From assembly GCA_016929515.1 (NCBI GenBank), contig JAFGIR010000016.1:26390-90389 (forward strand): DNA of 64,000 nucleotides, in the 5' to 3' direction. The notes below the pieces were generated by a model. It worked only from the letters and a program-made list of their open reading frames with translations, did not search any database and had not been told where the DNA came from. Below, one piece after another: positions 3,022 through 51,495 of the stretch (the stretch's first letter is position 1; every line of letters begins with the position of its first letter). The DNA is from Pirellulales bacterium. GTDB lineage: Bacteria; Planctomycetota; Planctomycetia; Pirellulales; Thermoguttaceae. A program made the position numbers and the translations under genes.

Positions 3022-3687
3022 TTAATAGACGAGCTCTTCTTCGATCCGTGCCAGTTGGGTTTCAAACTGCTGGTCGATTACGCCGAAACAAGTATTGACG
3101 CGGCATCCGCCTGGACTAACCCCTTCGTCGGCTACCACCTCGACCGATCCGAGTCCGACAAGTTCCTTGGCAATTTCGTCGACCCGTACACCAAGGGTCT
3201 GAAGGTCGGTTGGGTTCAGATAAACGCGGATCTCGTCGTTGCCGACGGCCAACTCGAGCGCCTCGCGTACCAACGTTAGCGGAACATCGGGATGTGTGTC
3301 GAGTGAGCGGCGGATCAGCCGTTCGGCGATGGATATGGCCACATGGACCGCGTTCTTTTCCCAGTGGTTCAGCCAGGCTTGCTTGGCGTCTTGTATTTCT
3401 TGGACGACTGCTTCGATCGCCGATGTCAAGGTGCCCCATTGTTCGTTATTGTGTTGCGTGAGCATTTCGTACGCGGTGCGGCGTCCTTGAGTGGCTGCAT
3501 CGAGGCGAATATGTTCGGCCTGTTGTTTGGCCGTAGCGATGAGTCGGGCCGCCTCGTTGGAAAACGAGGTTCGATCAGGATCGGCGCGTTGGGTCAAGTC
3601 CACTAGATCAACCGTCCAGGGGCGAACGCTTGCGCAAGAGTTGCTCGCTTTGATGATTGTCGGCATGCGTGTCTTTTCGGACCTCAT
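3022..3687 (-). CDS. fliH: flagellar assembly protein FliH
   Basis: The C-terminal segment VVADEGVSPGGCRVNTCFGVIDQQFETQLARIEEEL is the FliH/T3SS stator signature. It lies between fliF-G and fliI. Confidence 0.75.
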   Translation of the reverse strand: MRSEKTRMPTIIKASNSCASVRPWTVDLVDLTQRADPDRTSFSNEAARLIATAKQQAEHIRLDAATQGRRTAYEMLTQHNNEQWGTLTSAIEAVVQEIQDAKQAWLNHWEKNAVHVAISIAERLIRRSLDTHPDVPLTLVREALELAVGNDEIRVYLNPTDLQTLGVRVDEIAKELVGLGSVEVVADEGVSPGGCRVNTCFGVIDQQFETQLARIEEELVY

Positions 3688-3720
3688 GTTTTCTTGGTGT
3701 CCAATTCGCGTCTCGCGACG

Positions 3721-22969: not shown

Positions 22970-23153
22970 CACGTCTCCCGGTGTTGCCTTCCGAAGGAGG
23001 AGACCCGGCAGGCGGCTCGATTTATTGAAGTCTTTCATTAAATACTGCCAGTCCCCCGGCAAAACCGGGGGTTTCCTCGGATTAATAACTTCCCAGGCCT
23101 AGGGATAAAAACGTCGCCAATGCCCCCCATCCGGCCGTCTCTTTCGGCCACGT

Positions 23154-23224
23154 GTCATCCTGAGCGAAGCGAAGGATCTCGCGTCGTCTTGTGGGGCAAG
23201 ATTCTTCGCTTCGCTCAGGATGAC
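23154..23224. repeat. REP-like hairpin, 'GTCATCCTGAGCGAAGCGAAGGATCTC' family
   Basis: The arms gtcatcctgagcgaagcgaaggatctcgcg and aagattcttcgcttcgctcaggatgac are nearly perfect inverted repeats. It is intergenic, upstream of the ECF sigma gene. Confidence 0.75.
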
Positions 23225-33184: not shown

Positions 33185-34870
33185 TTAATCCTTCTTCTTT
33201 GCCTTGGGGCAACCTTTCTTTGCCGCATCCTTGTGATGAGCCGCGAAGGCTGCCTTCAGTTCTTTCTCGGTCAGTTGGCCGTCGGCGTCCGTGTCGATTT
33301 TGCTAAAACGCTCCTTCATGCTTTCGGGCACTTCATCACGACCGAGCGTACCATTTCCGTCCTTGTCGACTTTCTTGAATCGAGCGGCCATGACAGCCTT
33401 GATCTTCTCGCGGTCGATCTTGCCGGGTTTCTTGCCGGCCTTCTTGCCCTTCATGCCGTGGTGCATGCCAGGACCTTTCATGCCACCCGCTCGGGCAGCG
33501 TGAAATCGCTTGACCATCGAGACCAAGGCCACCTTGGCTTCCTGCTTGCTGATCGCCTTGTCGTCGTCCTTGTCAACCTTTTTGAGGATGCGGACAAAGC
33601 ACTCCTTGTGCGCAACGGCAGCTTCCTTGGCATCAACCTTGCCGTCCTTGTTGGCGTCGATCTTGTCGAAGACCTTGTTGGCGCCCATCATGATCCGCCC
33701 AACAATGGCGACATTCGGACGTTGCGGACTACCCTTGCCGGGACCCTTCATGCCAGATCCGCCCATGCCGGGCCGCTTGGCGGGCTTCATCCACGGGTGT
33801 CCGCCGGGGCTCTTCATGCCGGGACCACGCGTGCCCGGGCCGCCACGCATCGCAAGCGCCTTGGGATAACCCTTGCCGGGACCCATGGCCGGACGACCGG
33901 GACCACGCGTGCCCGGGCCGTGTTTGCCGTGCACGCCGAGACCGCGCATCCCAGGTTGTAGTTTGCCGCCCTCGAGTTGATACATGGCCAAATGATACTG
34001 GGCCAGATGGTACAACGCCTCGCGATTCGGACCACGCATGCCTGGGCCCTTCTTGCCATGGCCACGCTGACCAGGACCACGCATCGCCAACGCCTTGGGG
34101 TGACCCTTGCCAGGCCCCTTCATACCGAAGCCCTCCTTGCCATGGCCACGCTGACCAGGACCACGCATCGCCAACGCCTTGGGGTGACCTTTGCCAGGCC
34201 CCTTCATACCGGGGCCCTTCTTGCCATGGCCACCTTTGCCAGGGCCGAGCATGGCATGATCGGGACCGCCGCAGTGCTTTTTCATTTGAGCGTGCAGTTT
34301 TTGCATGCCCTGCTTGAATTCGTCCAAACTCAGTTGGTTGTTGCCATCCTTGTCGAGCCGCTTGAAAATTTGCTCGGGATTGGGCTTCTTGCCCTTGCCT
34401 TTCATGCCGGGCGCCTCGGAGCCGCGCCGGGCCAATTTCGCCATGCCAGGCTTGCCCTTGTTGGCAGACCACCAGACGTGCGCCGGCGCGGCTTTCGCGT
34501 CGCGGTCACGTCCCGGGTGTCCTTCATGATGCTCACGGTTGCCCACCTTCGGACCGTCGGGTCGGTGCCGACCCGGTGCTCCGAGGCTCTTCCGCGACGC
34601 CTTCAGTTGCGACAGCTTCAGTTCGTCGAGCGAGATTTTCTTGTCGCCGTTCTTGTCGACGCGCTCGAGCAGTCTTCCGAAATGCTCCTTCATCGGGCCG
34701 GGCATTTCGTCGAGAGTGATTTGGCCGTCGTTGTTGGCGTCCAGACGCTTGAAGAAGCCTTCGGGACCAGGCCGCGCCATCGGTGGACGTTTGGCTTCCT
34801 CGGCCATCAAGAGCGACGGCAGCAGCACGATCGCCAGGGCAATCGTCAGAATGGGGAGTGGTCGATACAT
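33185..34870 (-). CDS. secreted multi-EF-hand calcium-binding protein with Gly/Pro/Lys-rich repeat core
   Basis: The signal peptide is MYRPLPILTIALAIVLLPSLLMA. There are seven DxDxDG-type loops: DANNDGQITLDE, DKNGDKKISLDE, DKDGNNQLSLDE, DANKDGKVDAKE, DKDDDKAISKQE, DKDGNGTLGRDE and DTDADGQLTEKE. Confidence 0.85.
   Translation of the reverse strand: MYRPLPILTIALAIVLLPSLLMAEEAKRPPMARPGPEGFFKRLDANNDGQITLDEMPGPMKEHFGRLLERVDKNGDKKISLDELKLSQLKASRKSLGAPGRHRPDGPKVGNREHHEGHPGRDRDAKAAPAHVWWSANKGKPGMAKLARRGSEAPGMKGKGKKPNPEQIFKRLDKDGNNQLSLDEFKQGMQKLHAQMKKHCGGPDHAMLGPGKGGHGKKGPGMKGPGKGHPKALAMRGPGQRGHGKEGFGMKGPGKGHPKALAMRGPGQRGHGKKGPGMRGPNREALYHLAQYHLAMYQLEGGKLQPGMRGLGVHGKHGPGTRGPGRPAMGPGKGYPKALAMRGGPGTRGPGMKSPGGHPWMKPAKRPGMGGSGMKGPGKGSPQRPNVAIVGRIMMGANKVFDKIDANKDGKVDAKEAAVAHKECFVRILKKVDKDDDKAISKQEAKVALVSMVKRFHAARAGGMKGPGMHHGMKGKKAGKKPGKIDREKIKAVMAARFKKVDKDGNGTLGRDEVPESMKERFSKIDTDADGQLTEKELKAAFAAHHKDAAKKGCPKAKKKD
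34052..34245. repeat. 84-bp tandem repeat (2.3 copies) inside the EF-hand gene
   Basis: Units 34052-34135 and 34136-34219 differ at 4 of 84 positions, and a third partial unit follows. Each encodes the 28-aa unit GPGKGHPKALAMRGPGQRGHGK(E/K)G(F/P)GMK. Confidence 0.85.
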
Positions 34871-36498: not shown

Positions 36499-36508
36499 TC
36501 CGATTAGC

Positions 36509-38083
36509 CTACGCCTCTTCGAGCATCTTCCATCCCAGCGCGTCGGCCAGGGTGAAGACGGGCTCCTTCAGGTCGCCGTAGTAGGTCACCCGGTGCCAGC
36601 CCCATTTGTCCCACTGGCGGAGCAACTTCTCCAGGTCGCCGACCGGCTCCACGGCCAGTTTCGTCCGGCACGCCCGATCGTCGTCCACGTTGGCCATCGC
36701 CTTGCCCTGGTGGAAAGCGATCGCCTTTCGGGCAGGGTTGAATTTGACCGTGGTCGTCATGTAACCCAGCGGGCAGAGTGATCGAACCGCCGCCCCCCGG
36801 CGATCCTCGCTGTGCGTGAGGATCTCGAATGGGCTGGTCTCACCCTCCGGCCCGAACACCTTGTTCGACGCAACGCAATGGGCGTAAATGATCTGCCGCG
36901 TCGATGTATCGATGACCGGATCGGAAATGAAGCCGGGCCGTCCTCGTGTCAAGGCCGTCATGGCGATCATCGTGGCGGTCGACAGCAGATCGCACTCGCA
37001 CGCGCCAATGAGCCCCTCGTTATTCAACTCGTGGAAACCCATACACGGATAGGCGTGGATATGTCCTCCATAGAACCCGCCGAGGCAATTGATCGTGATC
37101 GCATTCGCGCCGTGCCGCTTGAGGACTTCCTTTTGGGCTAGGTACATGGCGGCCGACTGTTTAAGTGTTTCTGGTGAGACATTTTCGATTCTTCGAGCCG
37201 TCTTCTGCCACTTTTCGGCTATTTCGATCGACTGATCCCTGTCGGCCGACTGCCAGGCTGCGTTCAATTCGGCGTACGGCACGTCGACCACTTCAATGCC
37301 CATCTCTTTCTTGATGGCACTCCAGAGTCCCCCGTGTCTTCCACCCACCGCGAGGATCTTGCCCCGCTTCATTGCGGCCAAGCAGTCTTTCATATCGAGC
37401 GTCGCGACGGGATCGGGCAGCGAGGAAAGATCTCCGGGTGCGGGCGTTCGTTGCCGGCGCACCCGTTCGGTCGCCTCGACGAATTGTCCCATCGCACCTC
37501 CCCTGGCAACGATTTCAAAACACTGGACGGCCGCCGACAAGTCGTCCGGATCGGACGAGGCGACATAGCCAACGTTGGGTCGCTTCTGCCGAAGCATTTT
37601 GGCCGTGTATAGAAGGAACCCGCCGCTGCCGCCATAGGTGAAGTCGGCAAAAAGCGTCGGTTTACCCGAGGTCACCACCGTCTGCACCACGCGGGGCCAG
37701 TTGTTCATTTGCATGACTAAATAGCCGTCGACCGGCGACGATTTGTCTTGAGCGAGAATCTTCTTGGCCTGCTCAGACCCATCGGCCATCGACGTGACGA
37801 ACTCGAAACCAGGACACGCCGCCTTCAATTGTGTCTCGATGCCGGCCATGACCGGCCTAAAATCGTACCCCACGTGTGGCCAGGTCGGACGTGGTTGGAC
37901 CTTGTCATACAAGCTGTAGATGATTCGGATCCGCGGCTTGTCAGCGGCCACGGCTGCCCGAGCCAGACGATCAGTGGCCAGCAAGCCCGTCACCCCGGCG
38001 CAGGCCGCGCAGCCGGCTGCCAGGAATCGCCGCCGGCTCAGAGGACAACAGGAACACGAAGAAACTAATTCGGAGTGTTTCAT
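36509..38083 (-). CDS. Tat-signal, L-fucose/L-arabinose-isomerase-like (COG2407-like) protein, paralog 1 (524 aa)
   Basis: The N-terminus is MKHSELVSSCSCCPLSRRRFLAAGCAACAGVTGLLATDRLARA|A. The core AYPCMGFHELNNEGLIGACECDLLSTATM...GRPGFISDPVID...WGWHRVTYYGD resembles the metal-site layout of FucI/AraA-like isomerases. The ATG at 38083 follows AGGAAA. Confidence 0.8.
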   Translation of the reverse strand: MKHSELVSSCSCCPLSRRRFLAAGCAACAGVTGLLATDRLARAAVAADKPRIRIIYSLYDKVQPRPTWPHVGYDFRPVMAGIETQLKAACPGFEFVTSMADGSEQAKKILAQDKSSPVDGYLVMQMNNWPRVVQTVVTSGKPTLFADFTYGGSGGFLLYTAKMLRQKRPNVGYVASSDPDDLSAAVQCFEIVARGGAMGQFVEATERVRRQRTPAPGDLSSLPDPVATLDMKDCLAAMKRGKILAVGGRHGGLWSAIKKEMGIEVVDVPYAELNAAWQSADRDQSIEIAEKWQKTARRIENVSPETLKQSAAMYLAQKEVLKRHGANAITINCLGGFYGGHIHAYPCMGFHELNNEGLIGACECDLLSTATMIAMTALTRGRPGFISDPVIDTSTRQIIYAHCVASNKVFGPEGETSPFEILTHSEDRRGAAVRSLCPLGYMTTTVKFNPARKAIAFHQGKAMANVDDDRACRTKLAVEPVGDLEKLLRQWDKWGWHRVTYYGDLKEPVFTLADALGWKMLEEA

Positions 38084-38341
38084 CACAGGTTTCCTTTTTG
38101 TGAGGACCGGTAACAAAGGGGGGCTACAAACATGGTCACCACCGGCTCGCGCCACCTCCAACGGTTTCTGGCCGTGGAAGGCCCTTACGAACCGACGGGT
38201 GGTTAGGGAATAAACGCGATGAGGCCCCGGTTTTCGGTCCTCCGGGCACCGCTTCGCCATGGCCTGATCACCGTCAGGATGTTCCACAAGGCTTTCTGCT
38301 TGCTTTCTCGTATCGTCTTGTGAGCGTTTCCACGACCGCGA

Positions 38342-39916
38342 CTACGCCTCTTCGAGCACTTTCCAACCCAGTGCGTCGGCCAGAGCGTAGACGGGCTCTT
38401 TCAGATCGCCATAGTAGGTCACTCGGTGCCACCCCCATTGGTCCCACTGGCCAAACAACTTCTCGATATCGCCGACCGGCTCAACCGCCAGTTTCGTGCG
38501 ACACGCCCGATCGTCGTCCACGTTCTCCACCGCCTTGCCTTGGTGAAAGAGAATGGTCTTCCACTCCGGACCGAACTCGACGGTCGTGGTCATATAGCCC
38601 GTCGGAAAGATCGACCGAACCGCAGCGCCCTTGCGGTCTTCGCTGTGGGTGAGGATTTCGAACGGGTTGGACGGGCCCTCCGGTCCGAATACCCTGTTCG
38701 AGGCGACACAATGGGCATAGATGATTTGCCGCTTCGCCGCGTCGATCACCGGATCGGAGATGAAACCGGGACGGCCCCCGGCAAGTGCCGTCATCGCAAC
38801 CATGGTCGAGGCCGACCGTACGTCGCACTCGCACCCGCCGATCATCCCCTGGTTATTCAACTCATGAAACCCCAAGCAAGGATACGCGTGCAGATGACCT
38901 CCGTAGAACCCACCGAGGCAGTGGATCGTGATCCCGGTGGCGTCGTGCCGCTTGAGCAGCTCTTTTTCGGCCAAGTACATCGCGGCCGACGCTTCGAGCG
39001 TCTCGCGCGAGACGTCTTCGATACGCCGGGCCGCCTGCTGCCAGCGGTCGGCGATTTCCTGCGATTGGTCCTTGTCGGCTGCCCGCCAGGCTGCGTCGAG
39101 CTCGGCGAACGAAACCTGGACGACCTGAATACCCATTTGCTCTTCGATCGCCTGCCAGAGCCGTCCTCGCCCACGACCCACGGCCAGAATCTTGCCTCGT
39201 TTCATCGCGGCAAGGCAGTCTTTCGGCTCCAGCGCGCGCGGTGCATCGGGCTTGCACGAGAGATCGCCGGGTGCGGGCGTGCGCTCGCGGCGAGTCTGGG
39301 CGACCGCCGCGGCGAACTGCTCCCTGGAACCGCCTTGCTCGACGACGTGGAAACACTTGACCGCCGCGACCAGATCATCCAAGTCGGAGGACGAGACAAA
39401 ACCGAGTCGCGGCTGCGTCTCGCGCAACGATCGCGCCGTGTTGCTGAGAAATCGGCCCGTACCGCCATACGGGAAATCGGCGTAAAGCGTCGGCTTGCCC
39501 GCGGCAAGCACGGTCCGTACCGCGCGGGTCCGGTTGTTCAATTGATAGACCAGATAGCCGTCGACGGGCAACGCCTTGTCCTGTTCGAGGATTTTCTTGG
39601 CCTGCTCGGCGCCATTGACCGTCGCGGTGACGAACTCGAACTCCGGGCAATCCTCCTTGAGCTTGGCGTCGATTCGGGCGATGACCGGCCGAAAGTCAAA
39701 CCCAACGTTCGGCCAGTCCGGGCGGACCTGCTTCAGATCCTGGAACGCATAGATGACCCGAATCCGAGTCTTCTTCGTCTTCTCGGCCGCTCGGGCAAGG
39801 CTGCCCGCCCTCAGAAGACCGGTCGCCCCGGCACACGCCGCGCAGCTGGCTTCAAGAAACCGACGGCGGTTCACCGAACAACAAGCACACATGGAAGAAG
39901 ACTCGGAGTGTTTCAT
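38342..39916 (-). CDS. Tat-signal isomerase-like protein, paralog 2 (524 aa)
   Basis: The N-terminus is MKHSESSSMCACCSVNRRRFLEASCAACAGATGLLRAGSLARA|A. It has the same core motifs as paralog 1. The ATG at 39916 lies 6 nt after GGAAG; ATG 39919 is an alternative. Confidence 0.8.
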   Translation of the reverse strand: MKHSESSSMCACCSVNRRRFLEASCAACAGATGLLRAGSLARAAEKTKKTRIRVIYAFQDLKQVRPDWPNVGFDFRPVIARIDAKLKEDCPEFEFVTATVNGAEQAKKILEQDKALPVDGYLVYQLNNRTRAVRTVLAAGKPTLYADFPYGGTGRFLSNTARSLRETQPRLGFVSSSDLDDLVAAVKCFHVVEQGGSREQFAAAVAQTRRERTPAPGDLSCKPDAPRALEPKDCLAAMKRGKILAVGRGRGRLWQAIEEQMGIQVVQVSFAELDAAWRAADKDQSQEIADRWQQAARRIEDVSRETLEASAAMYLAEKELLKRHDATGITIHCLGGFYGGHLHAYPCLGFHELNNQGMIGGCECDVRSASTMVAMTALAGGRPGFISDPVIDAAKRQIIYAHCVASNRVFGPEGPSNPFEILTHSEDRKGAAVRSIFPTGYMTTTVEFGPEWKTILFHQGKAVENVDDDRACRTKLAVEPVGDIEKLFGQWDQWGWHRVTYYGDLKEPVYALADALGWKVLEEA

Positions 39917-40076
39917 CATGATCTTCCTTTGATTGAGGTGGGCAGGACGCATGCCGCGAAATGGGAGGAATATGGGTTGATGCCGCAAGAAACAGTAGGG
40001 CCGATCGGCGCGACTCGGCCAAGGCAAAACAAAGCGGTGTGCGGTTTCCTTGTTGTAAACGCTCTCGACGACGTGA

Positions 40077-41651
40077 CTACGCCTCCTCCAATACCTTCCA
40101 CCCCAACGCGTCGGCCAGGGCGAAGACAGGCTCTTTCAGGTCACCGTAGTAGGTCACGCGGTGCCAGCCCCACTGGTCCCACTGGCGGAAGAGTTTCTCG
40201 ATGTCACCCACCGGTTCGACCGCCAGCTTCGTGCGACACGCCCGATCGTCGTCGACGTTCTCCACGGCCTTGCCTTGGTGAAAGAGAATGGCCTTCCGCT
40301 CGGAACTGAACTTGACCGTCGTCGTCATGTAGCCCACGGGGAAGATCGAGCGGACTGCGGCACCGTTGCGATCTTCGCTGTGCGTGAGAATCTCGAATGG
40401 GTTTGTTTCGCCTTGTGGTCCGAAGACCCGGTTCGATGCGACGCAATGGGCGTAAATAATTTGCCGCTTGGCGGTGTCAACGACCGGATCGGAGATGAAC
40501 CCCGGCCGACCCCCGGTCATAGCCGTCATGGCCACCATCGTCGCAGTAGCTCGCAAGTCGCACTCGCACGCCCCGATGAGGCCTCGGTTGTTCAATTCGT
40601 GGAAACCCAGGCACGGATAGGCGTGGATATGCCCTCCGTAAAAGCCTCCGAGGCAATTGATCGTGATCGCGTTGGCGCCGTGCTTCTTGAGCACCTCTTT
40701 TTCGGCTAGATACATGGCCGCCGACTGTTCCAGCGTCTCGCGCGAAACATCCTCGATCTTTGCAGCCGTTTTCTGCCAGCGGTCGGCGATTTCTCGCGAC
40801 TGGTCCTTGTCGGCCGCCTCCCAAGCCGCGTTCAACTCGGCAAAGGGCACCTCGACGATTTCGATGCCCATCTGCTCGGTGACGGCCGGACCGATCTTCG
40901 GAAAAAAGCGACCCACCGTCAGAATCTTGCTCTGCTTCATCGCCGTGAGGCAGTCTTTTGTATCGAGCGTCTTGAGCGGGTCGGGTTTGCAGATCAAGTC
41001 ACTCGACGCGGGCGTCCCGTTCTTGCGCACCCGCTCGGTGGCCGCGACAAAGTCCGCAACCGAGCCGCCTTTCTTGATCAGTTCAAAACAACCCACCGCC
41101 GCGACCAGATCGTCCGGGTTCGACGAGGCGACGAAACCCAAGTTCGGCGTGTTGCGACGCAGCAAGCTCGCCGTGTAAACGAGGAATCCGCCGCTGCCAC
41201 CGAATTGAAAGTCGGCGTAGAGCGTCGGCTTGCCGGTGGTAACCACAGGCTGCACCACGTGATTCCAGCAGTTCATCTGATAAACGAGGTAGCCGTCGAT
41301 CTTGGCCGACTTGTCCTGTTCGAGGATCTCCTGGGTCTGCTTCGCGCCGGTGGCCATCGACGTGACGAACTCGATGTTTGGGCATCCCCTCTTCAACACG
41401 GCCTCGATTTGCGCCATGACGGGCCGGAAATCGAACCCAACGTTCGGCCAGTCCGCGCTCAGCTGTGTGGGGCCATGCAGAGCGTAGATGATCCGGATCC
41501 GCGTCTTATCCGTTTTCTCGGCTGCCCGAGCAAGGCCGCTGCCCGCCATAAGCCCCGTCGCGCCGGCACACGCCGCGCAACCGGCAGCAAGAAATCGACG
41601 CCGGCTGACCGGACAACAGGCGCACGCGGAAAGGCTCTCAAGGCGATTCAT
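40077..41651 (-). CDS. Tat-signal isomerase-like protein, paralog 3 (524 aa)
   Basis: The N-terminus is MNRLESLSACACCPVSRRRFLAAGCAACAGATGLMAGSGLARA|A. The C-terminus is nearly identical to paralog 2. Confidence 0.8.
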   Translation of the reverse strand: MNRLESLSACACCPVSRRRFLAAGCAACAGATGLMAGSGLARAAEKTDKTRIRIIYALHGPTQLSADWPNVGFDFRPVMAQIEAVLKRGCPNIEFVTSMATGAKQTQEILEQDKSAKIDGYLVYQMNCWNHVVQPVVTTGKPTLYADFQFGGSGGFLVYTASLLRRNTPNLGFVASSNPDDLVAAVGCFELIKKGGSVADFVAATERVRKNGTPASSDLICKPDPLKTLDTKDCLTAMKQSKILTVGRFFPKIGPAVTEQMGIEIVEVPFAELNAAWEAADKDQSREIADRWQKTAAKIEDVSRETLEQSAAMYLAEKEVLKKHGANAITINCLGGFYGGHIHAYPCLGFHELNNRGLIGACECDLRATATMVAMTAMTGGRPGFISDPVVDTAKRQIIYAHCVASNRVFGPQGETNPFEILTHSEDRNGAAVRSIFPVGYMTTTVKFSSERKAILFHQGKAVENVDDDRACRTKLAVEPVGDIEKLFRQWDQWGWHRVTYYGDLKEPVFALADALGWKVLEEA

Positions 41652-43165: not shown

Positions 43166-43237
43166 GTCATTCCGAGCGAAGCGAGGAATCTCGTCCCCAC
43201 CAGACCATGCGAGATCCTTCGCTTCGCTCAGGATGAC
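43166..43237. repeat. REP-like hairpin, 'GTCATYCYGAGCGAAGCGA' family
   Basis: The arms are gtcattccgagcgaagcgaggaatctcg and gcgagatccttcgcttcgctcaggatgac. Confidence 0.75.
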
Positions 43238-43250
43238 AAACACGTCGCCG

Positions 43251-43460
43251 GCAGGGTGGCTGGGGCATAGCGGAGCGGTGCCCCGGAAGTCCGAGAACTG
43301 GGCCATGGCCCAGCGGCGGCCCAGGGCTCCTGCCGCCCGGCGACCGTGGTCCGGCCCTTCGACCTGATCATGCATGAGACGTCCCTCGTGGATCATGGTA
43401 GTCTGTATACCATGGGCACACAGGTTTTTTCAAGTCAACTTTTTGGCCACCCCTCTTTGT
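43251..43460 (+). repeat. dispersed repeat unit A, copy 1
   Basis: It starts with gcagggtggctggggcatagcggagcggtgcccc and ends around tttttggccacccc. It aligns with 44983-45155 (about 70% by eye, with a ~40-nt indel). Confidence 0.6.
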
Positions 43461-43601
43461 TGCCGCGTGCCCGACGACGAACGGGAACCACGGATGGACA
43501 CGAATCGACACAAGATGGAGGGAAAAACTGGAGAGGACGTACGCCGGGCCGGTGGTCGAGCGACGAAGATTGGCCACGAAAAACACGAAGACGGTAGGTG
43601 G

Positions 43602-43739
43602 CCTTGATGGATTGGCCGGACAGATCTCGGTGTGCGACTGCTTGCGGAGTTTCTCGTGGCGTTGAATCGGTGCGACGGCACTGCTTGCCGGAGACCATTA
43701 ACCAGGAGATAATCGGCAAGCAGTGCGGCCCCGTCTCGG
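43602..43739 (+). repeat. dispersed repeat unit B, copy 1 (contains 13-bp-stem hairpin)
   Basis: About 85-90% identical by eye to 44845-44983. The internal hairpin is GCACTGCTTGCCG-(23 nt)-CGGCAAGCAGTGC. Confidence 0.7.
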
Positions 43740-43925: not shown

Positions 43926-44828
43926 GTGGCAACGATGGATCAATCTCACAAGTACTGTAAGAAGTGTCAAGAACAGTCTCTCCATGCACGACCGGGAACT
44001 AATCATCTTCTCCATGCTTTCTTGACCTTTTTTCTCTGCGGATTCTGGTTGCCGGTTTGGATTCTGGCTTCCATCCGAATTGGTGGCTGGCGTTGTCAGA
44101 CTTGTGGCTATGGAGGTAGCACACTTCTGCGGTTTGGTCCACCGGTACTTGCTCTTGGTGGCTTCCTTCTTGTTCTATCGATCGTTGTGGCAAGCCTTGA
44201 TATGTCAAGCCCCGTGGCTGCAACTACGCCCGGCCGCGATTCTTCCAGCGACACCGCGGCACCCGATGTGGCTACCGCCAAGCCGGTATACGACGTTCCT
44301 TCCCTCATCGGCAAGACCATTGACGAAATCCGAAGCACACTTGGCAAACCTCTGGACTCGGAAATTGAGCCGTCGGAACTACAACTGGATACCGGCGTTG
44401 ACCAATGGGAAAATGTCTTTGAGAAAAACGGTTGTCAGTTGCTGGTAACCTTTGACCCACGGACTCGGAAAGTGGTGGATTTCTTCCTCGAAGGGAACAA
44501 ACAAGAATCCGTGTTGCGGATTGGGCAGTTGTCAGCCGATGCGACGGACTATCGGATTGAGTATGTCAAGGCGATTCGTGATCCTTCGGCTATCACTGGA
44601 GTCAAGGCTATTCCAACACCCAAGGTAGTGGTCCGAGAGCCGGCACCCAAGGTGCCAACAGTGAGAACGTGGACCGATGCTACCGGCCGTTACAAGACGG
44701 AAGGCACGTTTGCTGGGGTTGAATCCGGAAAGGTCAAGTTGATAAAGGCGGACGGAACGTCTATCAACTTGCCGCTTGAGAAACTGTCGCAAGAAGACAG
44801 GCAATGGATAAAGAACCAAGGTAACTAG
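43926..44828 (+). CDS. membrane protein with N-terminal Zn-ribbon/TM region and C-terminal SHD1 (SLA1-homology) domain
   Basis: It has YCKKCQEQ...CQTCG flanking TM segments. The C-terminal RTWTDATGRYKTEGTFAGVESGKVKLIKADGTSINLPLEKLSQEDRQWI is the bacterial SHD1 signature. The start is GTG 43926 or ATG 43935. It is visibly AT-richer than neighbouring genes. Confidence 0.8.
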   Translation: MATMDQSHKYCKKCQEQSLHARPGTNHLLHAFLTFFLCGFWLPVWILASIRIGGWRCQTCGYGGSTLLRFGPPVLALGGFLLVLSIVVASLDMSSPVAATTPGRDSSSDTAAPDVATAKPVYDVPSLIGKTIDEIRSTLGKPLDSEIEPSELQLDTGVDQWENVFEKNGCQLLVTFDPRTRKVVDFFLEGNKQESVLRIGQLSADATDYRIEYVKAIRDPSAITGVKAIPTPKVVVREPAPKVPTVRTWTDATGRYKTEGTFAGVESGKVKLIKADGTSINLPLEKLSQEDRQWIKNQGN

Positions 44829-44844
44829 CTGGGCGCGCGGGTGC

Positions 44845-44983
44845 CCTTGATTGATTGGCCGTACAAATCTCGGTGTGCCACCGCTTGCGGAAGCTCCTCG
44901 TGGTGTTGAATCAGAGCGACGGCACAGCTTGCCGGAGACCATTGGCCAGGAGATAATCTGCAAGCAGTGCGGCCCAGTCTCGG
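44845..44983 (+). repeat. dispersed repeat unit B, copy 2
   Basis: See 43602-43739. It is in the same orientation and lies immediately 3' of the SHD1 gene. Confidence 0.7.
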
Positions 44984-45155
44984 CAGGGTGGCTGGGGCAT
45001 AGCGTAGCGGTGCCCCAGAGCGTCACCGCCCGGCAACCGTGGTTCGACGTTTCGACCTGACCAACCATGGGAAATCCCTCGCCGATCCTAGGTCCATGCA
45101 TACCACAGCCCAATCGGATTTTCCAGTCGAGTTTTTGGCCACCCCCCTTCTTTCA
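44983..45155 (+). repeat. dispersed repeat unit A, copy 2
   Basis: It runs from gcagggtggctggggcatagcgtagcggtgcccc to gtttttggccacccccc, contiguous with B copy 2. Confidence 0.6.
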
Positions 45156-47200: not shown

Positions 47201-47350
47201 GACCGTCTCCTGAACAGGCGGGCGATTGGGCCGGCGTCCTCGTTTCAATCTCCCATCCGAACCCCGGCAAGTCAAGCTCCGACTTCAGATCTTCCCTTCC
47301 GACGCTCTCTGGGACGTCTGAGACGGGAATACACTACCGAATTGAAGCCT

Positions 47351-47851
47351 CTACGCTTCTTCCTCCACTCGACCGCCGCGGACAACAAAATGACGTTTCT
47401 CGCTCGCCGGGCGGAACAGCCGCCAGTCTTCGCCCTGCGTGCCGGCGGGAAAGAGAACGAGACGGTACGTGCCCGACAACTGCATGACGGCGCCTCCGTG
47501 AGCATCGGTGGCAACGTCTTCGACGGTGGGGCACGCCGTCTCGATGAACTGCCTGACTTTTCGGTCTTGGAGCGTTTCGTTCTCGGTCCAATCCCAGGCG
47601 TCGGCGTCGAACTCGTCGGTCTCTTCCGCCGGGTGGAACAGATCATGCCGTCCGGTGAGAATCCGATCCGCCGTCTCGATACGCCACGGACATTGCACGT
47701 GGAGCGCGTACTGGCCGCATTCCCCTTTTTCATACGGACGCAACTCACCAAAGTCGAACATGCGCATGTCGCACGCGCGGCCGGTGCCCGAGAGCTTCAG
47801 GCCAATGAGCACTCGAAGCTGCTCAAACGTTGCTTGCGCGGTGTCTGCCAT
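47351..47851 (-). CDS. hypothetical protein (166 aa, no recognised domain)
   Basis: It has a clean ORF and a protein-like composition (GQYALHVQCPWRIETADRILTGRHDLF...TYRLVLFPAGTQGEDWRLF). Confidence 0.55.
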   Translation of the reverse strand: MADTAQATFEQLRVLIGLKLSGTGRACDMRMFDFGELRPYEKGECGQYALHVQCPWRIETADRILTGRHDLFHPAEETDEFDADAWDWTENETLQDRKVRQFIETACPTVEDVATDAHGGAVMQLSGTYRLVLFPAGTQGEDWRLFRPASEKRHFVVRGGRVEEEA

Positions 47852-47965
47852 GTTGCTCTGATCCAGAAATCTTCACGCCGGGAAATGGAGTCCTTCCGCC
47901 CCATCGGTGCGTGCAAGCACGCGCGCTACGGCTCGGCCATTCCCATTGCGGGACGAGGGCACGCG

Positions 47966-48030
47966 CTGTTTCTGCGAAGGAATGCCACACAAGAATTAAC
48001 CGCGTTGCAGCAAGGGCATCCGGCGCATTC
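47966..48030 (+). repeat. dispersed repeat unit C, copy 2
   Basis: See 45354-45421. It lies at the left border of the AT-richer toxin-antitoxin/peptidase cassette. Confidence 0.5.
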
Positions 48031-48091
48031 TGCTTGTATTGAGGCCCATTGGGAAGTCAATCAGACAACTGGCCATCAGAGCAGTAGCCGC

Positions 48092-48943
48092 TCATGTCTT
48101 CGGCGTTAGCAGACAGAAAATGTTGTACGTGTTGAAGAAGAACTCCGCCTGGAATATGGTCTGCTTGTCGGTAGCAGAATCAGAAACACTGATCTCACAT
48201 ACATAGCTATCCTCTATGCCTTTCCCCGATTGTGTAACCGCCGCAACTGCCTCCGGGGGCACTTCACCCCGCAGCTTCTCAAAAAACCTCGTTTTGAAAA
48301 TGGGTGATGCGGCGCAGTAGCGAACGTCCCAGCTTGGAGTGGCGTCCACGTCGATATTGTGCTGACGGTTCTTCTGCTTGAAGACGATCAACATGCACGG
48401 GCGAAAGTTCTTCTCGACCAGCCTTCTCGCAGTTGCTTCAAAGGAACTCTGATATCGCGTAGCGAGCTCCTTAACAGTGGAAGTACTGATCTGGCGGGAA
48501 TTGGCCTCTGCGGAGAAACGGTCGCCGAGAAACAGCAGATCGGCGGCAAAATCGTTCGCCTCCTTCTCCAGCATCAGCCGCGTACCAAAGCTGAGTCCGA
48601 TATCATCACACACATACAGTGCATGCTCGTGATGCGGTAGGACGTAGTGGCCGATCTCATGCAGCACGCTGAAGCGCTCGCGCTTGACGCTCAAGGAATC
48701 GTCCGTCGCAATCAGACGGTCGGCAAACGACAGAAGAGCACGGGGCGATGCCCCCGCCAGCGTGCATCTGGCCTCCTCTGGCAGTTCGGTGGCGAAATGG
48801 AAGCTCGTATAGTCGAGCTTCAGGAACTCCAGCAACTCCTGGGGATTGATATACTCTCGGTCGAACTGACCAGCGTTGCGGAGCAGGTAGCGCACCAGTT
48901 CCCGCGGCTCGATTTCCAGATAACCTGCACGGAACGAAGTCAT
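48092..48943 (-). CDS. ImmA/IrrE-family (COG2856/DUF955) zinc metallopeptidase with ~130-aa C-terminal extension
   Basis: The HExxH motif lies in SVLHEIGHYVLPHHEH. Its ATG overlaps the stop of the upstream HTH gene (ATGA at 48940-48943). Confidence 0.8.
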   Translation of the reverse strand: MTSFRAGYLEIEPRELVRYLLRNAGQFDREYINPQELLEFLKLDYTSFHFATELPEEARCTLAGASPRALLSFADRLIATDDSLSVKRERFSVLHEIGHYVLPHHEHALYVCDDIGLSFGTRLMLEKEANDFAADLLFLGDRFSAEANSRQISTSTVKELATRYQSSFEATARRLVEKNFRPCMLIVFKQKNRQHNIDVDATPSWDVRYCAASPIFKTRFFEKLRGEVPPEAVAAVTQSGKGIEDSYVCEISVSDSATDKQTIFQAEFFFNTYNIFCLLTPKT

Positions 48944-49518
48944 GACGGGAGCACCCTGTCCTTGCGAAGTACGCCAAGCGATTTGCGGACAGCTTCTAGT
49001 CCCTCGGTACTCATGTCCGCTCCGTGCGCAGCCATCGCCAGCCGGTTGCTGCCTTTGAGTTCCTCCAACTCCGTAAAGTACCGACCGATGAGTGCATCGC
49101 GGCCCGGCTCGCGTTCGGCGTCGACAATCGCAAACATCTCGGCATTTCTGTCGATCAGTCGGATGAGTGTGTCGCTGGCCTTCGTCTGCAGGGAGCGACC
49201 GTTCTCCCAGCGGGTGTAAGTCTTTTCACCCACACCCAACAGGTGACTCATGTCGACGGCCGACAGCCCAGTCTTCTCGCGGACACCACGAATGTCCTCG
49301 GGTGCGAGTAAGCCGAGGCGTCGATACCTTTCCTGGCCGATCACCGTATCGAGTTCATGGGACAAAATGTCCTCGCCGCACGATCTGCAATGGAGCCACG
49401 AGGCGTCGGGAATGATGATCACACCGCCAGGGATATTCGGCGGGGGATCCATCCGGAACTCGCCCTGCATGTCCACGAGCGTATTCTCGCCACACAGGGG
49501 GCAGTGTTTTGTAGCCAT
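48940..49518 (-). CDS. MqsA-like antitoxin: YgiT-type zinc ribbon + XRE-family HTH
   Basis: The zinc ribbon is HCPLCGE...(29 aa)...HCRSCGE. The HTH is IRGVREKTGLSAVDMSHLLGVGEKTYTRWENGRSLQTKASDTLIRLI. A ~60-aa C-terminal tail follows. Confidence 0.8.
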   Translation of the reverse strand: MATKHCPLCGENTLVDMQGEFRMDPPPNIPGGVIIIPDASWLHCRSCGEDILSHELDTVIGQERYRRLGLLAPEDIRGVREKTGLSAVDMSHLLGVGEKTYTRWENGRSLQTKASDTLIRLIDRNAEMFAIVDAEREPGRDALIGRYFTELEELKGSNRLAMAAHGADMSTEGLEAVRKSLGVLRKDRVLPS

Positions 49519-49553
49519 GGCGTACCTCCCATCATCACGGCTGCCGCGCGTTC

Positions 49554-49883
49554 TCAGTAGTCGGGATGGACCGAAATGAGCAGCGCGTACTCGCCAGGTT
49601 CACCTAACTCACAGAGCGTTAGCTTGAAATAGAAGAGCACATTGTTGATGCGGGGCTTCATCTCGAACGCCGCTTGCCCCACGTGCCGGCCACGCAAAAC
49701 GACCTTCTTCACCCGGTTGCCGGTGTCAATCCACGCCACGATCTCATCGCACACATCTTCCTTGCTAAGATGGTGCGTCAGCAAGCTGTACTCGACGGAC
49801 TTCGTCACACGGACTTCGGTCGGGTCCGACGCCAGCCGACGGATCTCCGCACGTTCATTTGAATCAGCCGAGTTGCCGGCCAT
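49554..49883 (-). CDS. MqsR-like toxin candidate (109 aa)
   Basis: It is encoded first, directly upstream of the MqsA-like gene (35-nt gap), as in mqsRA. EVRVTKSVEYSLL...DVCDEIVAWI...VLFYFKLTL...ALLISVHPD aligns loosely by eye with the MqsR segments VRTTRSALL...MCNVIIGL...VYLKITV...VLIVSFKEK. The start is taken at ATG 49883. Confidence 0.5.
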   Translation of the reverse strand: MAGNSADSNERAEIRRLASDPTEVRVTKSVEYSLLTHHLSKEDVCDEIVAWIDTGNRVKKVVLRGRHVGQAAFEMKPRINNVLFYFKLTLCELGEPGEYALLISVHPDY

Positions 49884-49924
49884 TGCTTGCTCCCCCGCAA
49901 CGCCGTTGCACACCCGCAAGCAAC

Positions 49925-49967
49925 TCATATGGTACCATATGATACCTTATTCGTCCTTGCGAGGCAA
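49925..49967 (-). promoter_or_regulatory. candidate promoter with overlapping perfect 18-bp palindromic operator for the toxin-antitoxin-peptidase cassette
   Basis: On the minus strand: TTGCCT (49962-49967), a 17-nt spacer, then TATCAT (49939-49944). The palindrome TCATATGGTACCATATGA (49925-49942) overlaps the -10 element and lies ~42 nt upstream of ATG 49883. Confidence 0.45.
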
Positions 49968-50058
49968 GTTCTTGAACCACTTTGGTTCCGTTGTCTCCTA
50001 GAAACCCACCGTCACTAATACATAAGTTGTATAATAACAGTTATTTGTGTAATGAACG

Positions 50059-51495
50059 TCAGACGTTCACCTCGGCCGAGCCGCCCAGGGCGTCGGGATA
50101 ACGTTTTCGGATCGGTTCGACGACCGTCGCGAGGAACTCGTCGACTTGTTCGGGCGCGCGGCCGACGAACGTCGCCGGGTCGAGGGCCGCCTCAAGGTCG
50201 ACCGACGAAAAAGCCTTGTCGCCGGCCAGCCGTTCCAACAGGTCGTTCGCCCTGCCCTGCTCTTTGACGACCGCGGCGGCGGCCTGGCTGTGTTTTCGAA
50301 TACGCTCGTGCAGGTCTTGCCGATCGCCGCCCGCCGCGACGGCCGCCATGAGGATGTTTTCGGTCGCCATGAAGGGCAATTCGGCGGCCAGGCCGGCCGC
50401 GATCACCTTGGGATAGACGACCAACCCTTCGGTCACGTTTTGATAGAGAATCAGCACGGCGTCGACCGCCAAGAAGGCCTGGGGCAGCATCAGCCGCCGG
50501 TTGGCGCTGTCGTCCAACGTCCGCTCGAACCACTGCGTGGCGGCGGTCGCGTCGGCGCTCGACTGCAGGCTCATCGCGAAACGCGCCAACGAGCAGATCC
50601 GCTCGCTGCGCATCGGATTGCGCTTGTAGGCCATGGCCGACGAGCCGATCTGGCTCTTCTCGAACGGCTCCTCGACCTCCTTGCGGTGTTGCAGCAACCG
50701 CAGATCGGTGGCCATTTTGTGCGCGCTCTGGGCGATGCCCGAGAGGACCGCGAGCACTTGCGAGTCGACTTTGCGCGAGTAGGTCTGGCCGGTCACGGCG
50801 TAGGTCTCGTCGAAGCCCATCTTCTGGCAGACCAACTCGTCGAGCCGGCGGACTTTTTCGTGATCGCCGTCGAACAGTTGCAGAAAGCTCGCCTGGGTGC
50901 CGGTCGTGCCCTTGACACCCCGGGCCTTTAGCTGACTGAGCCGATGTTCGAGCTCGGCCAGATCGAGCGCCAGCTCATAGGCCCAGAGACACGCCCGGCG
51001 TCCGACCGTCGTCGGCTGGGCCGGTTGCATGTGGGTAAAGGCCAGGCACGGCAGATCGCGATAGTCGGCGGCGAACCGGCCCAGCCGATCGATCACCCCG
51101 ACCAGCCGGTCGCGGACCAGCCGGAGGGCGTCGCGGATTTGCAGCAAATCGGTGTTGTCGCCGACGAAACAACTCGTCGCGCCCAGGTGGATGATGGCTC
51201 GCGCGTCGGGACACGCGTCGCCGAAGGCGTGCACATGGGCCATGACGTCGTGGCGGAGTTGCTTTTCATATCGGGCGGCCGTCGCGAAATCAACGTCGGC
51301 GGCGTGGGCCTTGAGTTGATCGATCTGCTTCTGGCGGACCGGCAAGCCCAGTTCGGCCTCCGCTTCGGCCAGCGCGATCCAAAGCCGGCGCCACGTGGTG
51401 AATTTGCGCCGAGGGCTAAAGATCGCGCTCATCTCGGACGAAGCGTAGCGCGAAATCAACGGGTTTTCGTATTGATCGAGTTCTGGCATAGTCAA
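50059..51495 (-). CDS. purB: adenylosuccinate lyase
   Basis: The N-terminus [38 protein letters not shown], the signature [15 protein letters not shown] and the 478-aa length fit PurB. Confidence 0.95.

Follow-up and report, generated by a model that had tools for sequence, protein, structure and literature searches.

How the toxins of type II toxin-antitoxin systems are released in vivo is disputed, and the model of general antitoxin degradation by Lon/ClpP has been questioned. A cassette of three genes in a 64,000-nucleotide stretch of contig JAFGIR010000016.1 from a Pirellulales bacterium, hereafter referred to as the window, raises the question of whether an antitoxin may be governed by a protease encoded directly beside it. 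The cassette lies in the region 48092-49967 and consists of closely packed genes on the minus strand, which were read directly and from the listing of open reading frames (ORFs), with the coordinates given in a preliminary description of the locus:

49554-49883, minus strand: gene 1, 109 aa, predicted MqsR-fold putative ribonuclease (RNase) toxin
48940-49518, minus strand: gene 2, 192 aa, predicted MqsA-family repressor/antitoxin
48092-48943, minus strand: gene 3, 283 aa, predicted IrrE/PprI/CapP-type metallopeptidase

We propose, with about even confidence, that these genes form an autoregulated MqsRA-type pair governed by its own IrrE/CapP-type peptidase, the tail of the antitoxin being cut in response to a single-stranded DNA (ssDNA) signal. 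Within this proposal, it is probable from our analysis that the peptidase cleaves the antitoxin.

The anatomy of the cassette was observed directly. The junction of genes 2 and 3 reads TCATGA, the ATG of gene 3 sharing four nucleotides (ATGA) with the gene 2 stop, an overlap already pointed out in the preliminary description. Shine-Dalgarno-like sequences precede gene 1 (GGGGGAG) and gene 2 (GGGAGG). A longer version of gene 1 (124 aa), starting at 49928, was considered and rejected, given that at least 25 homologues are exactly 109 aa long and start with MA.NSAD; the ATG at 49928 also falls inside the operator described below, which counts against the 124-aa version.

Co-conservation of the three genes is likewise a direct observation. 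The triad recurs, in unchanged order and spacing, at over 20 independent loci that have unrelated flanks; most of these are from Planctomycetota and some from other phyla, and this recurrence argues that the cassette is not a chance arrangement. The order is toxin, MqsA, peptidase in all loci, gene 1 being directly upstream of the MqsA-type gene in every triad, which agrees with the earlier remark that the toxin is encoded first, as in mqsRA. The helix-turn-helix (HTH) protein and the peptidase are two separate ORFs throughout. In 10 of 15 loci the stop of the MqsA gene and the start of the peptidase gene share 4 nt, and in the others they are separated by at most 8 nt. When look-ups were anchored on the toxin, an MqsA-like gene (187-199 aa) was directly downstream in 6/6 informative contexts and an M78 gene was third wherever the contig was long enough (at locus L098 the third ORF is cut at the contig end and was left unscanned). 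These triads include toxins only 21-31% identical to that of the window, and the gene 1 family was found in triads only, in every informative context. Look-ups anchored on MqsA gave the triad in 2/2. For the peptidase, 185,579 GTDB species genomes were scanned and the best 80 of 152 relatives were inspected with hidden Markov models (HMMs) for all three proteins; among these 80, the triad was present in all ten genomes with a peptidase at least 36% identical, and it was found in one further look-up. The co-occurrence survey suggested in the preliminary description has thus been carried out, and the peptidase gene proved strictly co-conserved with the toxin-antitoxin pair.

The triad is rare, with about 11 loci among the best 80 of the 152 peptidase relatives. 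The hosts of the ten GTDB triads are Thermoguttaceae, Planctomycetaceae, Fuerstiella, Planctomicrobium, a Thermoleophilia metagenome-assembled genome (MAG) and a Deltaproteobacteria MAG. Between loci, the pairwise identities of any one of the three proteins closely follow those of the other two (r = 0.94-0.96; Mantel test, 0/2000 permutations). These values show that the triad is inherited as a unit, although shared host phylogeny also feeds the correlation. The flanking genes vary from locus to locus, the following gene often being on the opposite strand or distant, and the cassette is a small, horizontally moving one. Triads usually sit among housekeeping genes, as in the window, and occasionally in defence-like clusters. 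More distant full-length relatives of the peptidase, in Acidobacteriota, Anaerolineae and on a Clavibacter plasmid, have a plain XRE partner in a CapH/CapP-like layout from which the toxin is absent, and plasmid relatives in general are all below 32% identity and lie in two-gene modules. As the sister peptidases are coupled to plain XRE repressors, one would expect gene 3 to have the HTH protein for partner and substrate.

What kind of peptidase, then, does gene 3 encode? It matched Pfam Peptidase_M78 (E 5e-12) and the PADLOC capP model (E 1e-27, residues 77-250). Against the PDB its only single-sequence match was Thauera CapP 7T5T (phmmer E 3e-3), which was also the best match of the gene 3 profile, followed weakly by IrrE. 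Its AlphaFold2 (AF2) model, with a predicted local distance difference test (pLDDT) score of 86.7, was matched by Foldseek over the full length to IrrE 3dte (E 5e-12, 276 columns, template modelling (TM) score 0.63/0.70), to PprI with ssDNA (8sln) and to CapP 7t5t (E 9e-8). Phytochrome PAS-GAF fragments gave sub-threshold partial matches (E 0.02-0.14, probability up to 0.99). Owing to the full-length IrrE/PprI/CapP matches the C-terminal region is explained as a linker followed by a GAF-like domain, and the protein as modelled has three domains, namely an M78 peptidase, a helical HTH-like linker and a C-terminal GAF-like sensor domain. The preliminary description had recognised a HEIGH metallopeptidase of the ImmA/IrrE (COG2856) type, and both the M78 match and the full-length IrrE/CapP fold are in line with this. 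What it had called a C-terminal domain of about 130 aa of unknown function is replaced by the linker and the sensor domain. The features concerned are located as follows:

48647-48661, minus strand: HEIGH motif of gene 3 (H95, E96, H99)
48608-48610, minus strand: putative cysteine-switch residue Cys112 of gene 3
48566-48568, minus strand: Glu126 of gene 3, third zinc ligand
about 48095-48403, minus strand: GAF-like domain of gene 3

In 40 homologues of gene 3, the zinc-site residues H95, E96, H99 and E126 are invariant, as are R90, W205 and C112. C112 (in YVCDD) aligns with C113 of Thauera CapP (in FQCSD), the residue that, by capping the active-site zinc, keeps CapP latent up to the binding of ssDNA. 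The loop around C112 (residues 110-115) is the only internal low-confidence segment of the gene 3 model. R90 and W205 may match residues of CapP that contact ssDNA.

Gene 2 exceeded the cut-offs of two curated models of the MqsA family, TIGR03830 (72.2 bits, cut-off 61.8) and PF15731 (45.7, cut-off 30), the latter covering residues 5-129 only, and it matched E. coli MqsA 3gn5 (E 1e-7) over the same residues. By its sequence it belongs genuinely to the MqsA family and combines a zinc ribbon with an XRE HTH, the architecture that had been read earlier from its CPLCG...CRSCG motif. The four cysteines of this motif (C6, C9, C44, C47) are at least 95% conserved and are followed by the HTH at residues 71-129. 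Beyond the HTH, the protein continues into a tail, which had been estimated at about 60 aa and measures 63 aa:

49378-49503, minus strand: zinc ribbon of gene 2
49132-49308, minus strand: XRE HTH of gene 2
48943-49131, minus strand: 63-aa C-terminal tail of gene 2 (residues 130-192), outside the MqsA models
49021-49038, minus strand: A-M-A-A-H-G motif of gene 2 (residues 161-166)

The tail is not present in E. coli MqsA. It is a fixed feature of the gene 2 family, because more than 235 clusters of homologues are all about 190 aa long. In 111 sequences the AMAAHG motif is at least 95% conserved (the M at least 80%), equal to the zinc-ribbon cysteines. A homology of the tail to the tails of plain XRE partners, hinted at by a MAFFT alignment, was dropped, as neither the tail profile nor the tail HMM gave support for it. 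At locus L063 (Cohnella sp., 3386-4309), a plain XRE repressor of 149 aa stands beside a short M78 peptidase of 151 aa without a GAF domain, and the repressor tail has EALAFHGEG, resembling LAMAAHGAD of the triads, with a non-significant tail HMM match (E 0.44).

Alternatively, the peptidase could have a target other than the antitoxin, for instance the toxin or a protein of a phage or of the host, or it could bind the antitoxin tail non-catalytically as a stabilising partner. MqsRAC shows that a C-terminal extension of MqsA can be the handle of a third protein, Rir inhibits Crh without detectable cleavage, and homology of the tail to the C-terminal domains of known substrates could not be shown. 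Against this stand the invariance of H95, E96, H99 and E126 in the 40 homologues and the precedent of other M78/XRE pairs, in that the adjacent XRE protein is cleaved in three of the four considered (CapP/CapH, IrrE/DdrO and ImmA/ImmR), Rir/Crh being the pair for which cleavage was not shown. We regard this alternative as improbable.

Gene 1 was the most difficult to place. It had no match in Pfam, NCBIfam, PADLOC or PHROGs, and comparison of the single sequence and of the profile with the PDB gave nothing real, the best being a collagen adhesin and Hcp (E > 0.05). A word-indexed search gathered 32 close clusters of the gene 1 family, and an exhaustive HMM search of 1.84 billion representative proteins extended it to 105 clusters. 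The AF2 model built on the family alignment (pLDDT 88, predicted TM score 0.82) had MqsR (3hi2_B/D) as the top Foldseek match in the PDB, with TM 0.66-0.78, a root-mean-square deviation of 2.9 Å over about 102 columns and probability 1.0; after the MqsR 3HI2 chains there is a clear gap, followed by unrelated folds. In addition, hhalign matched a 65-sequence gene 1 family to E. coli MqsR with 85% probability (E 6e-6), the numbering of the latter sequence agreeing with the residues named in PMC9636575. The kinship to MqsR was seen solely by fold search and hhalign; the MqsR_toxin scan suggested in the preliminary description was negative for gene 1, and toxin homology was nonetheless found by fold and profile. 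The loose resemblance to MqsR that had been noted by eye is supported by these comparisons, although PF15723, the Pfam MqsR model, is nearly silent on the family, giving sub-threshold matches in 5/65 gene 1 relatives (best E 0.004). On the model, gene 1 is a member of a divergent MqsR-fold clade outside PF15723 as now defined.

49629-49631, minus strand: conserved Tyr85 of gene 1, equivalent of MqsR Tyr81
49566-49568, minus strand: invariant His106 of gene 1, equivalent of MqsR Lys96

The hhalign pairs (gene 1/MqsR) are Y85/Y81, K87/K83, K76/R72 and H106/K96. Among the 65 sequences, Y85 is conserved in 61, K/R87 and S104 in 64 each and H106 in all. Essential or catalytic residues of MqsR are K56 and Y81 (PMC9636575). 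From the aligned positions, the active site of gene 1 probably uses Tyr/His instead of Tyr/Lys.

It could also be asked whether gene 1 is the toxin at all, since in PD-lambda-2 the Xre-peptidase protein is toxic and is rescued by a HigB-like protein. By that analogy the peptidase, alone or with the HTH protein, would be the harmful component, and the MqsR-fold protein a neutraliser or sensor. COG2856 was listed as a predicted toxin by Makarova et al. in 2009, and across the wider gene 1 family the equivalent of Lys56 varies. The invariant His106 and near-invariant Tyr85, Lys87 and Ser104 at MqsR active-site positions, on the other hand, point to an enzyme and not to a mere binding partner. The autoinhibitory cysteine switch of the peptidase is typical of a latent signalling protease, and PF15731 and TIGR03830, both of the curated MqsA models scanned, call gene 2 an antitoxin. 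Such a reversal of roles thus has little probability in our estimate.

The third line of evidence for the proposed module is its promoter. A sigma70-like site, TTGCCT-17-TATCAT (49967-49939, minus strand), is the only one in the interval 47300-50200, in which one is expected by chance, and its -10 box lies inside a directly observed palindromic element:

49962-49967, minus strand: -35-like hexamer TTGCCT of the cassette promoter
49939-49944, minus strand: -10-like hexamer TATCAT, inside the operator palindrome
49925-49946, no strand assigned: putative operator, 16-mer and overlapping palindrome

The 16-mer of the operator, GGTATCATATGGTACC, occupies 49931-49946 and overlaps a perfect 18-bp palindrome, TCATATGGTACCATATGA, at 49925-49942. 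Its consensus, GGTATCAWWTGATACC, has one match in the window (at most 2 mismatches) vs 0.01 expected. With at most 3 mismatches the 16-mer was found in 15 of 18 triad loci, mostly 50-65 nt 5' of the toxin ATG. Each of 10 triad loci has exactly one copy of the core motif GTAYCAWWTGRTAC, against 0/75 other fetched loci with a copy, these 75 including the triad loci L001, L002, L006 and L007, with more diverged operators, and L015 and L021, with no copy found. Furthermore, the layout TTGnCn-N16/17-TATCAT upstream of the toxin gene recurs at other triad loci, TTGnCn being usual before the 16-mer. This layout is that of an autorepressed promoter, and from it we infer binding of the operator by the gene 2 protein. 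The operator of E. coli MqsA is ACCT-N-AGGT, and the sequence of the palindrome in the window differs from it.

Individual loci show what else may surround such a module. L021 (3077-5839; Neomarinimicrobiota MAG) is a divergent triad made up of a 108-aa toxin-like ORF ending in VSAHES, a 168-aa MqsA-like protein and a 271-aa peptidase, with a tyrosine integrase next in line; in place of the common operator this triad has a perfect 24-bp palindrome of its own, GAAATGAGTAATATTACTCATTTC. At L088 (634-973) and L089 (290-629), both from a Chitinivibrionales MAG, the toxin gene is frameshifted at an A8 run and the MqsA-like and peptidase genes are intact; a sequencing error, decay and phase variation are all possible causes of the frameshift. 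At L018 (910-4834; Edaphobacter MAG) a full-length peptidase of 35% identity stands beside divergently oriented genes for a ThiF/E1-like, a small E2-like and a ubiquitin-like-repeat protein, labels that were assigned by eye from the translations. An association of CapH/CapP with ubiquitin-like operons, which L018 fits, was mentioned by Lau et al. Finally, the triad of L086 (1-8579; Phycisphaeraceae contig) lies within a co-directional defence-like cluster, with an MmeI/Eco57I-type methyltransferase, a NOV_C protein and a 424-aa protein upstream and a gene for an 1804-aa DEAD/YjiV_N helicase downstream, beginning 7 nt past the peptidase stop. At some loci, as L086 indicates, the module may also control neighbouring genes.

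These surroundings bear on the possibility that the cassette is a transcriptional switch only, that is, a DNA-damage regulator of the CapH/CapP type whose toxin stays stoichiometrically neutralised as an addiction or stabilisation element and is not an effector released by proteolysis. Cleavage would then do no more than derepress the operon and, at some loci, genes downstream of it. Such a function would be in accordance with the conserved operator over the -10 box, with the plain two-gene repressor/peptidase regulators that are the relatives of the peptidase clade, and with the helicase gene 7 nt past the L086 peptidase, where the defence-like cluster fits a regulator with its cargo. CapH/CapP itself is documented as a regulator, not as an effector, and MqsA binds its toxin with the N-terminal domain, which is far away from the tail. 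There is, however, no consistent downstream cargo, as the flanks vary and the gene that follows often has the opposite orientation or is distant. In addition, the toxin family is restricted to triads in informative contexts, which argues that the toxin is the regulated output, and the toxin is encoded first, so that derepression favours it. A purely transcriptional role is, in our opinion, unlikely, but it deserves more weight than either a reversal of roles or another target of the peptidase.

How, then, would an IrrE/CapP-type peptidase govern an MqsRA-type pair? In the proposed sequence of events, the gene 2 protein would bind the palindrome over the -10 box via its HTH and repress the operon, and its N-terminal zinc-ribbon domain would keep the MqsR-fold RNase from acting, in the manner of E. 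coli MqsRA. The peptidase would be made from the same transcript through translational coupling and would be kept latent by Cys112 on the active-site zinc, in the cysteine-switch loop. Upon DNA damage or phage replication, ssDNA would bind the groove between the peptidase and GAF-like domains and open the switch. The peptidase would then cut the antitoxin tail, for which A161-M-A-A-H-G166, 27-31 residues before the C-terminus, or its immediate vicinity is the candidate site. Repression would be lost, resulting in a burst of the toxin-first transcript; the damaged antitoxin would fall behind, and free toxin would cleave RNA, with growth arrest or abortive infection as the outcome.

The steps of this scheme have counterparts in characterised pairs. 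CapH binds its own promoter, and ssDNA-activated CapP cuts its C-terminal domain at F82/R83, a site 25 residues short of the end. IrrE, on which ssDNA acts as a stimulus through the GAF-like domain, cuts DdrO at L106/R107, and ImmA cuts ImmR at F95/M96. The known cut sites in DdrO, ImmR and CapH are 23-31 residues from the C-termini. A stricter version of the proposal, in which the ssDNA-sensing peptidase directly licenses the MqsR-fold RNase by the cut at AMAAHG and the three genes form a minimal autonomous module of abortive infection or stress response, is possible but seems to us rather doubtful.

Several points weigh against the proposal as a whole. In E. coli MqsA the toxin is bound by the N-terminal zinc domain, and a cut in the tail may therefore act only by derepression or destabilisation. 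The tail profile gave chance matches only against the PDB, with no relation to the C-terminal domains of CapH, DdrO or others, and the tail HMM, run against all fetched ORFs, did not reach the tails of plain XRE partners significantly; the likeness in motif, in the MAFFT alignment and at L063, is suggestive only. Concerning the toxin, PF15723 does not match the gene 1 protein of the window, and the equivalent of MqsR Lys56, represented by K59/K60 in that protein, is variable across the wider family (n=65). In PD-lambda-2 it is the HTH-peptidase protein that is toxic, not the HigB-like protein. Regarding a role in defence, only some of the triad loci sit among defence-type genes, and the close relatives include one contig from IMG/VR, with a degraded toxin gene, and no plasmid. 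DNA binding, ssDNA sensing, cleavage, toxin neutralisation, toxicity and RNase activity are, moreover, all properties that we infer for the three proteins from our analysis.

Comparison with known systems helps to separate what is new from what is not. CapH/CapP (Lau et al., 2022, bioRxiv 10.1101/2022.04.27.489752; Calloji et al., 2026) is an ssDNA-activated M78-GAF peptidase with its repressor, regulating CBASS (cyclic oligonucleotide-based antiphage signalling system), DISARM (defence island system associated with restriction-modification) and other operons, toxin-antitoxin pairs being unmentioned. Gene 3 shares its predicted three-domain architecture, and the cysteine-switch Cys aligns. In both systems the peptidase gene directly follows, and is translationally coupled to, the gene of an XRE-family repressor, and a palindromic operator lies in the promoter. 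The repressor of the triad, however, is of the MqsA type, with a zinc-ribbon toxin-binding domain and a different tail, and its "cargo" is a single MqsR-fold toxin in the same operon, whereas that of CapH/CapP is a divergently transcribed CBASS operon. Identity between gene 3 and Thauera CapP is also low (13% in structural alignment). DdrO/IrrE (PprI) of Deinococcus provides the best full-length structural match to gene 3 (3dte, 8sln), with GAF-like and M78 domains, and its repressor is cut about 23 residues from the C-terminus in an ssDNA-stimulated manner. In contrast to gene 3, IrrE is without a cysteine switch; irrE and ddrO form no operon with a toxin, and DdrO controls a DNA-repair regulon.

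On the side of the toxin-antitoxin pair, the cassette resembles E. coli MqsR/MqsA in encoding the toxin first, in the zinc ribbon and HTH of the antitoxin, in the MqsR fold and in the retained equivalent of Tyr81, and autoregulation through a palindrome is expected. It differs in that its toxin is missed by the MqsR Pfam model and has His for Lys96, and in possessing a 63-aa antitoxin tail, another operator sequence and a dedicated peptidase gene. MqsRAC is likewise a tripartite derivative of MqsRA, in which a third protein acting through a C-terminal extension of MqsA decides on toxin release (Vassallo et al., 2022; PMC9519451), and it defends against phage T2 (PMC9519451). Its third protein is a SecB-like chaperone and not an M78 peptidase, so the expected trigger logic is loss of a protector in one case and activation of a cutter in the other.

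RosmerTA (RmrT/RmrA), PD-lambda-2 and the COG2856 system of Makarova et al. are also mobile and combine a toxin-like gene with subsequent XRE HTH and M78 peptidase functions. RosmerTA and PD-lambda-2 are experimentally validated anti-phage defence systems. HTH and peptidase are fused in PD-lambda-2, and the RosmerTA antitoxin carries the Zn-peptidase, the RmrA models spanning both regions, whereas the triad has two ORFs. Their peptidase is without the IrrE-type GAF-like domain, and their toxins are unrelated or HigB-like; the PADLOC RmrA and PD-Lambda-2_B models matched the M78 core of gene 3 only, and weakly (E 1e-8 to 4e-2). COG2856-Xre genes beside RelE and PIN toxins were reported by Makarova et al. 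(2009; PMC2701414), who predicted a three-component system with a protease cleaving the Xre antitoxin/repressor. A full-text literature search for an MqsR-MqsA-M78/COG2856/IrrE triad found no description of one.

In the window, the neighbours of the cassette are purB, a 166-aa orphan ORF and a hexosaminidase gene, with no adjacent CBASS operon (a CD-NTase, that is, a cGAS/DncV-like nucleotidyltransferase, and an effector), and a PADLOC scan gave matches for genes 2 and 3 only. The 166-aa ORF (47351-47851, minus strand) was considered as a fourth component and rejected; it has no match in Pfam, NCBIfam, PADLOC or PHROGs and stands beside no other triad, and on these grounds it is not part of the module. 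The cassette had been described as an AT-richer segment between a repeat unit and purB. AT-richer it is, though modestly, with a G+C content of 56.9% vs 64.8% for purB, 62.4% for the hexosaminidase gene and 59.0% for the entire window; no repeat, on the other hand, adjoins it. No repeats, tRNA or integration signatures were found flanking the cassette, the nearest repeats being at 43.2-45.0 kb, and no Rfam families were found in 40-58 kb of the window. The sole terminator candidate 3' of gene 3 is a weak hairpin at 48011-47999, and such sites are no commoner than in shuffled sequence.

Elsewhere in the window, an ORF at 43926-44828 is flanked by short intergenic repeats, 88-95% identical, at 43195-43739 and 44840-45019. 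A 44-nt element with GTCATCCTGAGCGAAGCGAAGGATC occurs in three places, and repeats were also seen at 585-627 and 23142-23196. The short intergenic repeats and the 44-nt element are probably the "repeat units" of the preliminary description, and none of them adjoins the cassette. Three tandem paralogous copies of about 1.8 kb, 67-83% identical at the nucleotide level, span three large ORFs at 36504-41651, and a 561-aa ORF at 33185-34870 contains 84-nt tandem repeats at 34037-34255.

What was already known is the general idea of a protease-gated three-component system (PMC2701414) and its fused relatives, RosmerTA and PD-lambda-2. New is the joining of a split, GAF-bearing, cysteine-switch peptidase of the CapP/IrrE type to an MqsRA-type pair, with a toxin clade missed by current models. 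This new MqsR-like clade is defined by 105 clusters in 1.84 billion representatives. If the proposed mechanism is true, the triad would be, as far as could be found, the first type II toxin-antitoxin system to carry a signal-gated protease dedicated to its own antitoxin, and one three-gene unit would answer the disputed question of type II toxin activation. In a cassette with a latent, ligand-gated, site-specific protease beside its antitoxin, the trigger, the cut site and the output would each be defined, and all of them could be tested with three small genes. It would also join two separate lines, that of the CapH/CapP and DdrO/IrrE DNA-damage switches and that of toxin-antitoxin phage defence as represented by MqsRAC, RosmerTA and PD-lambda-2.

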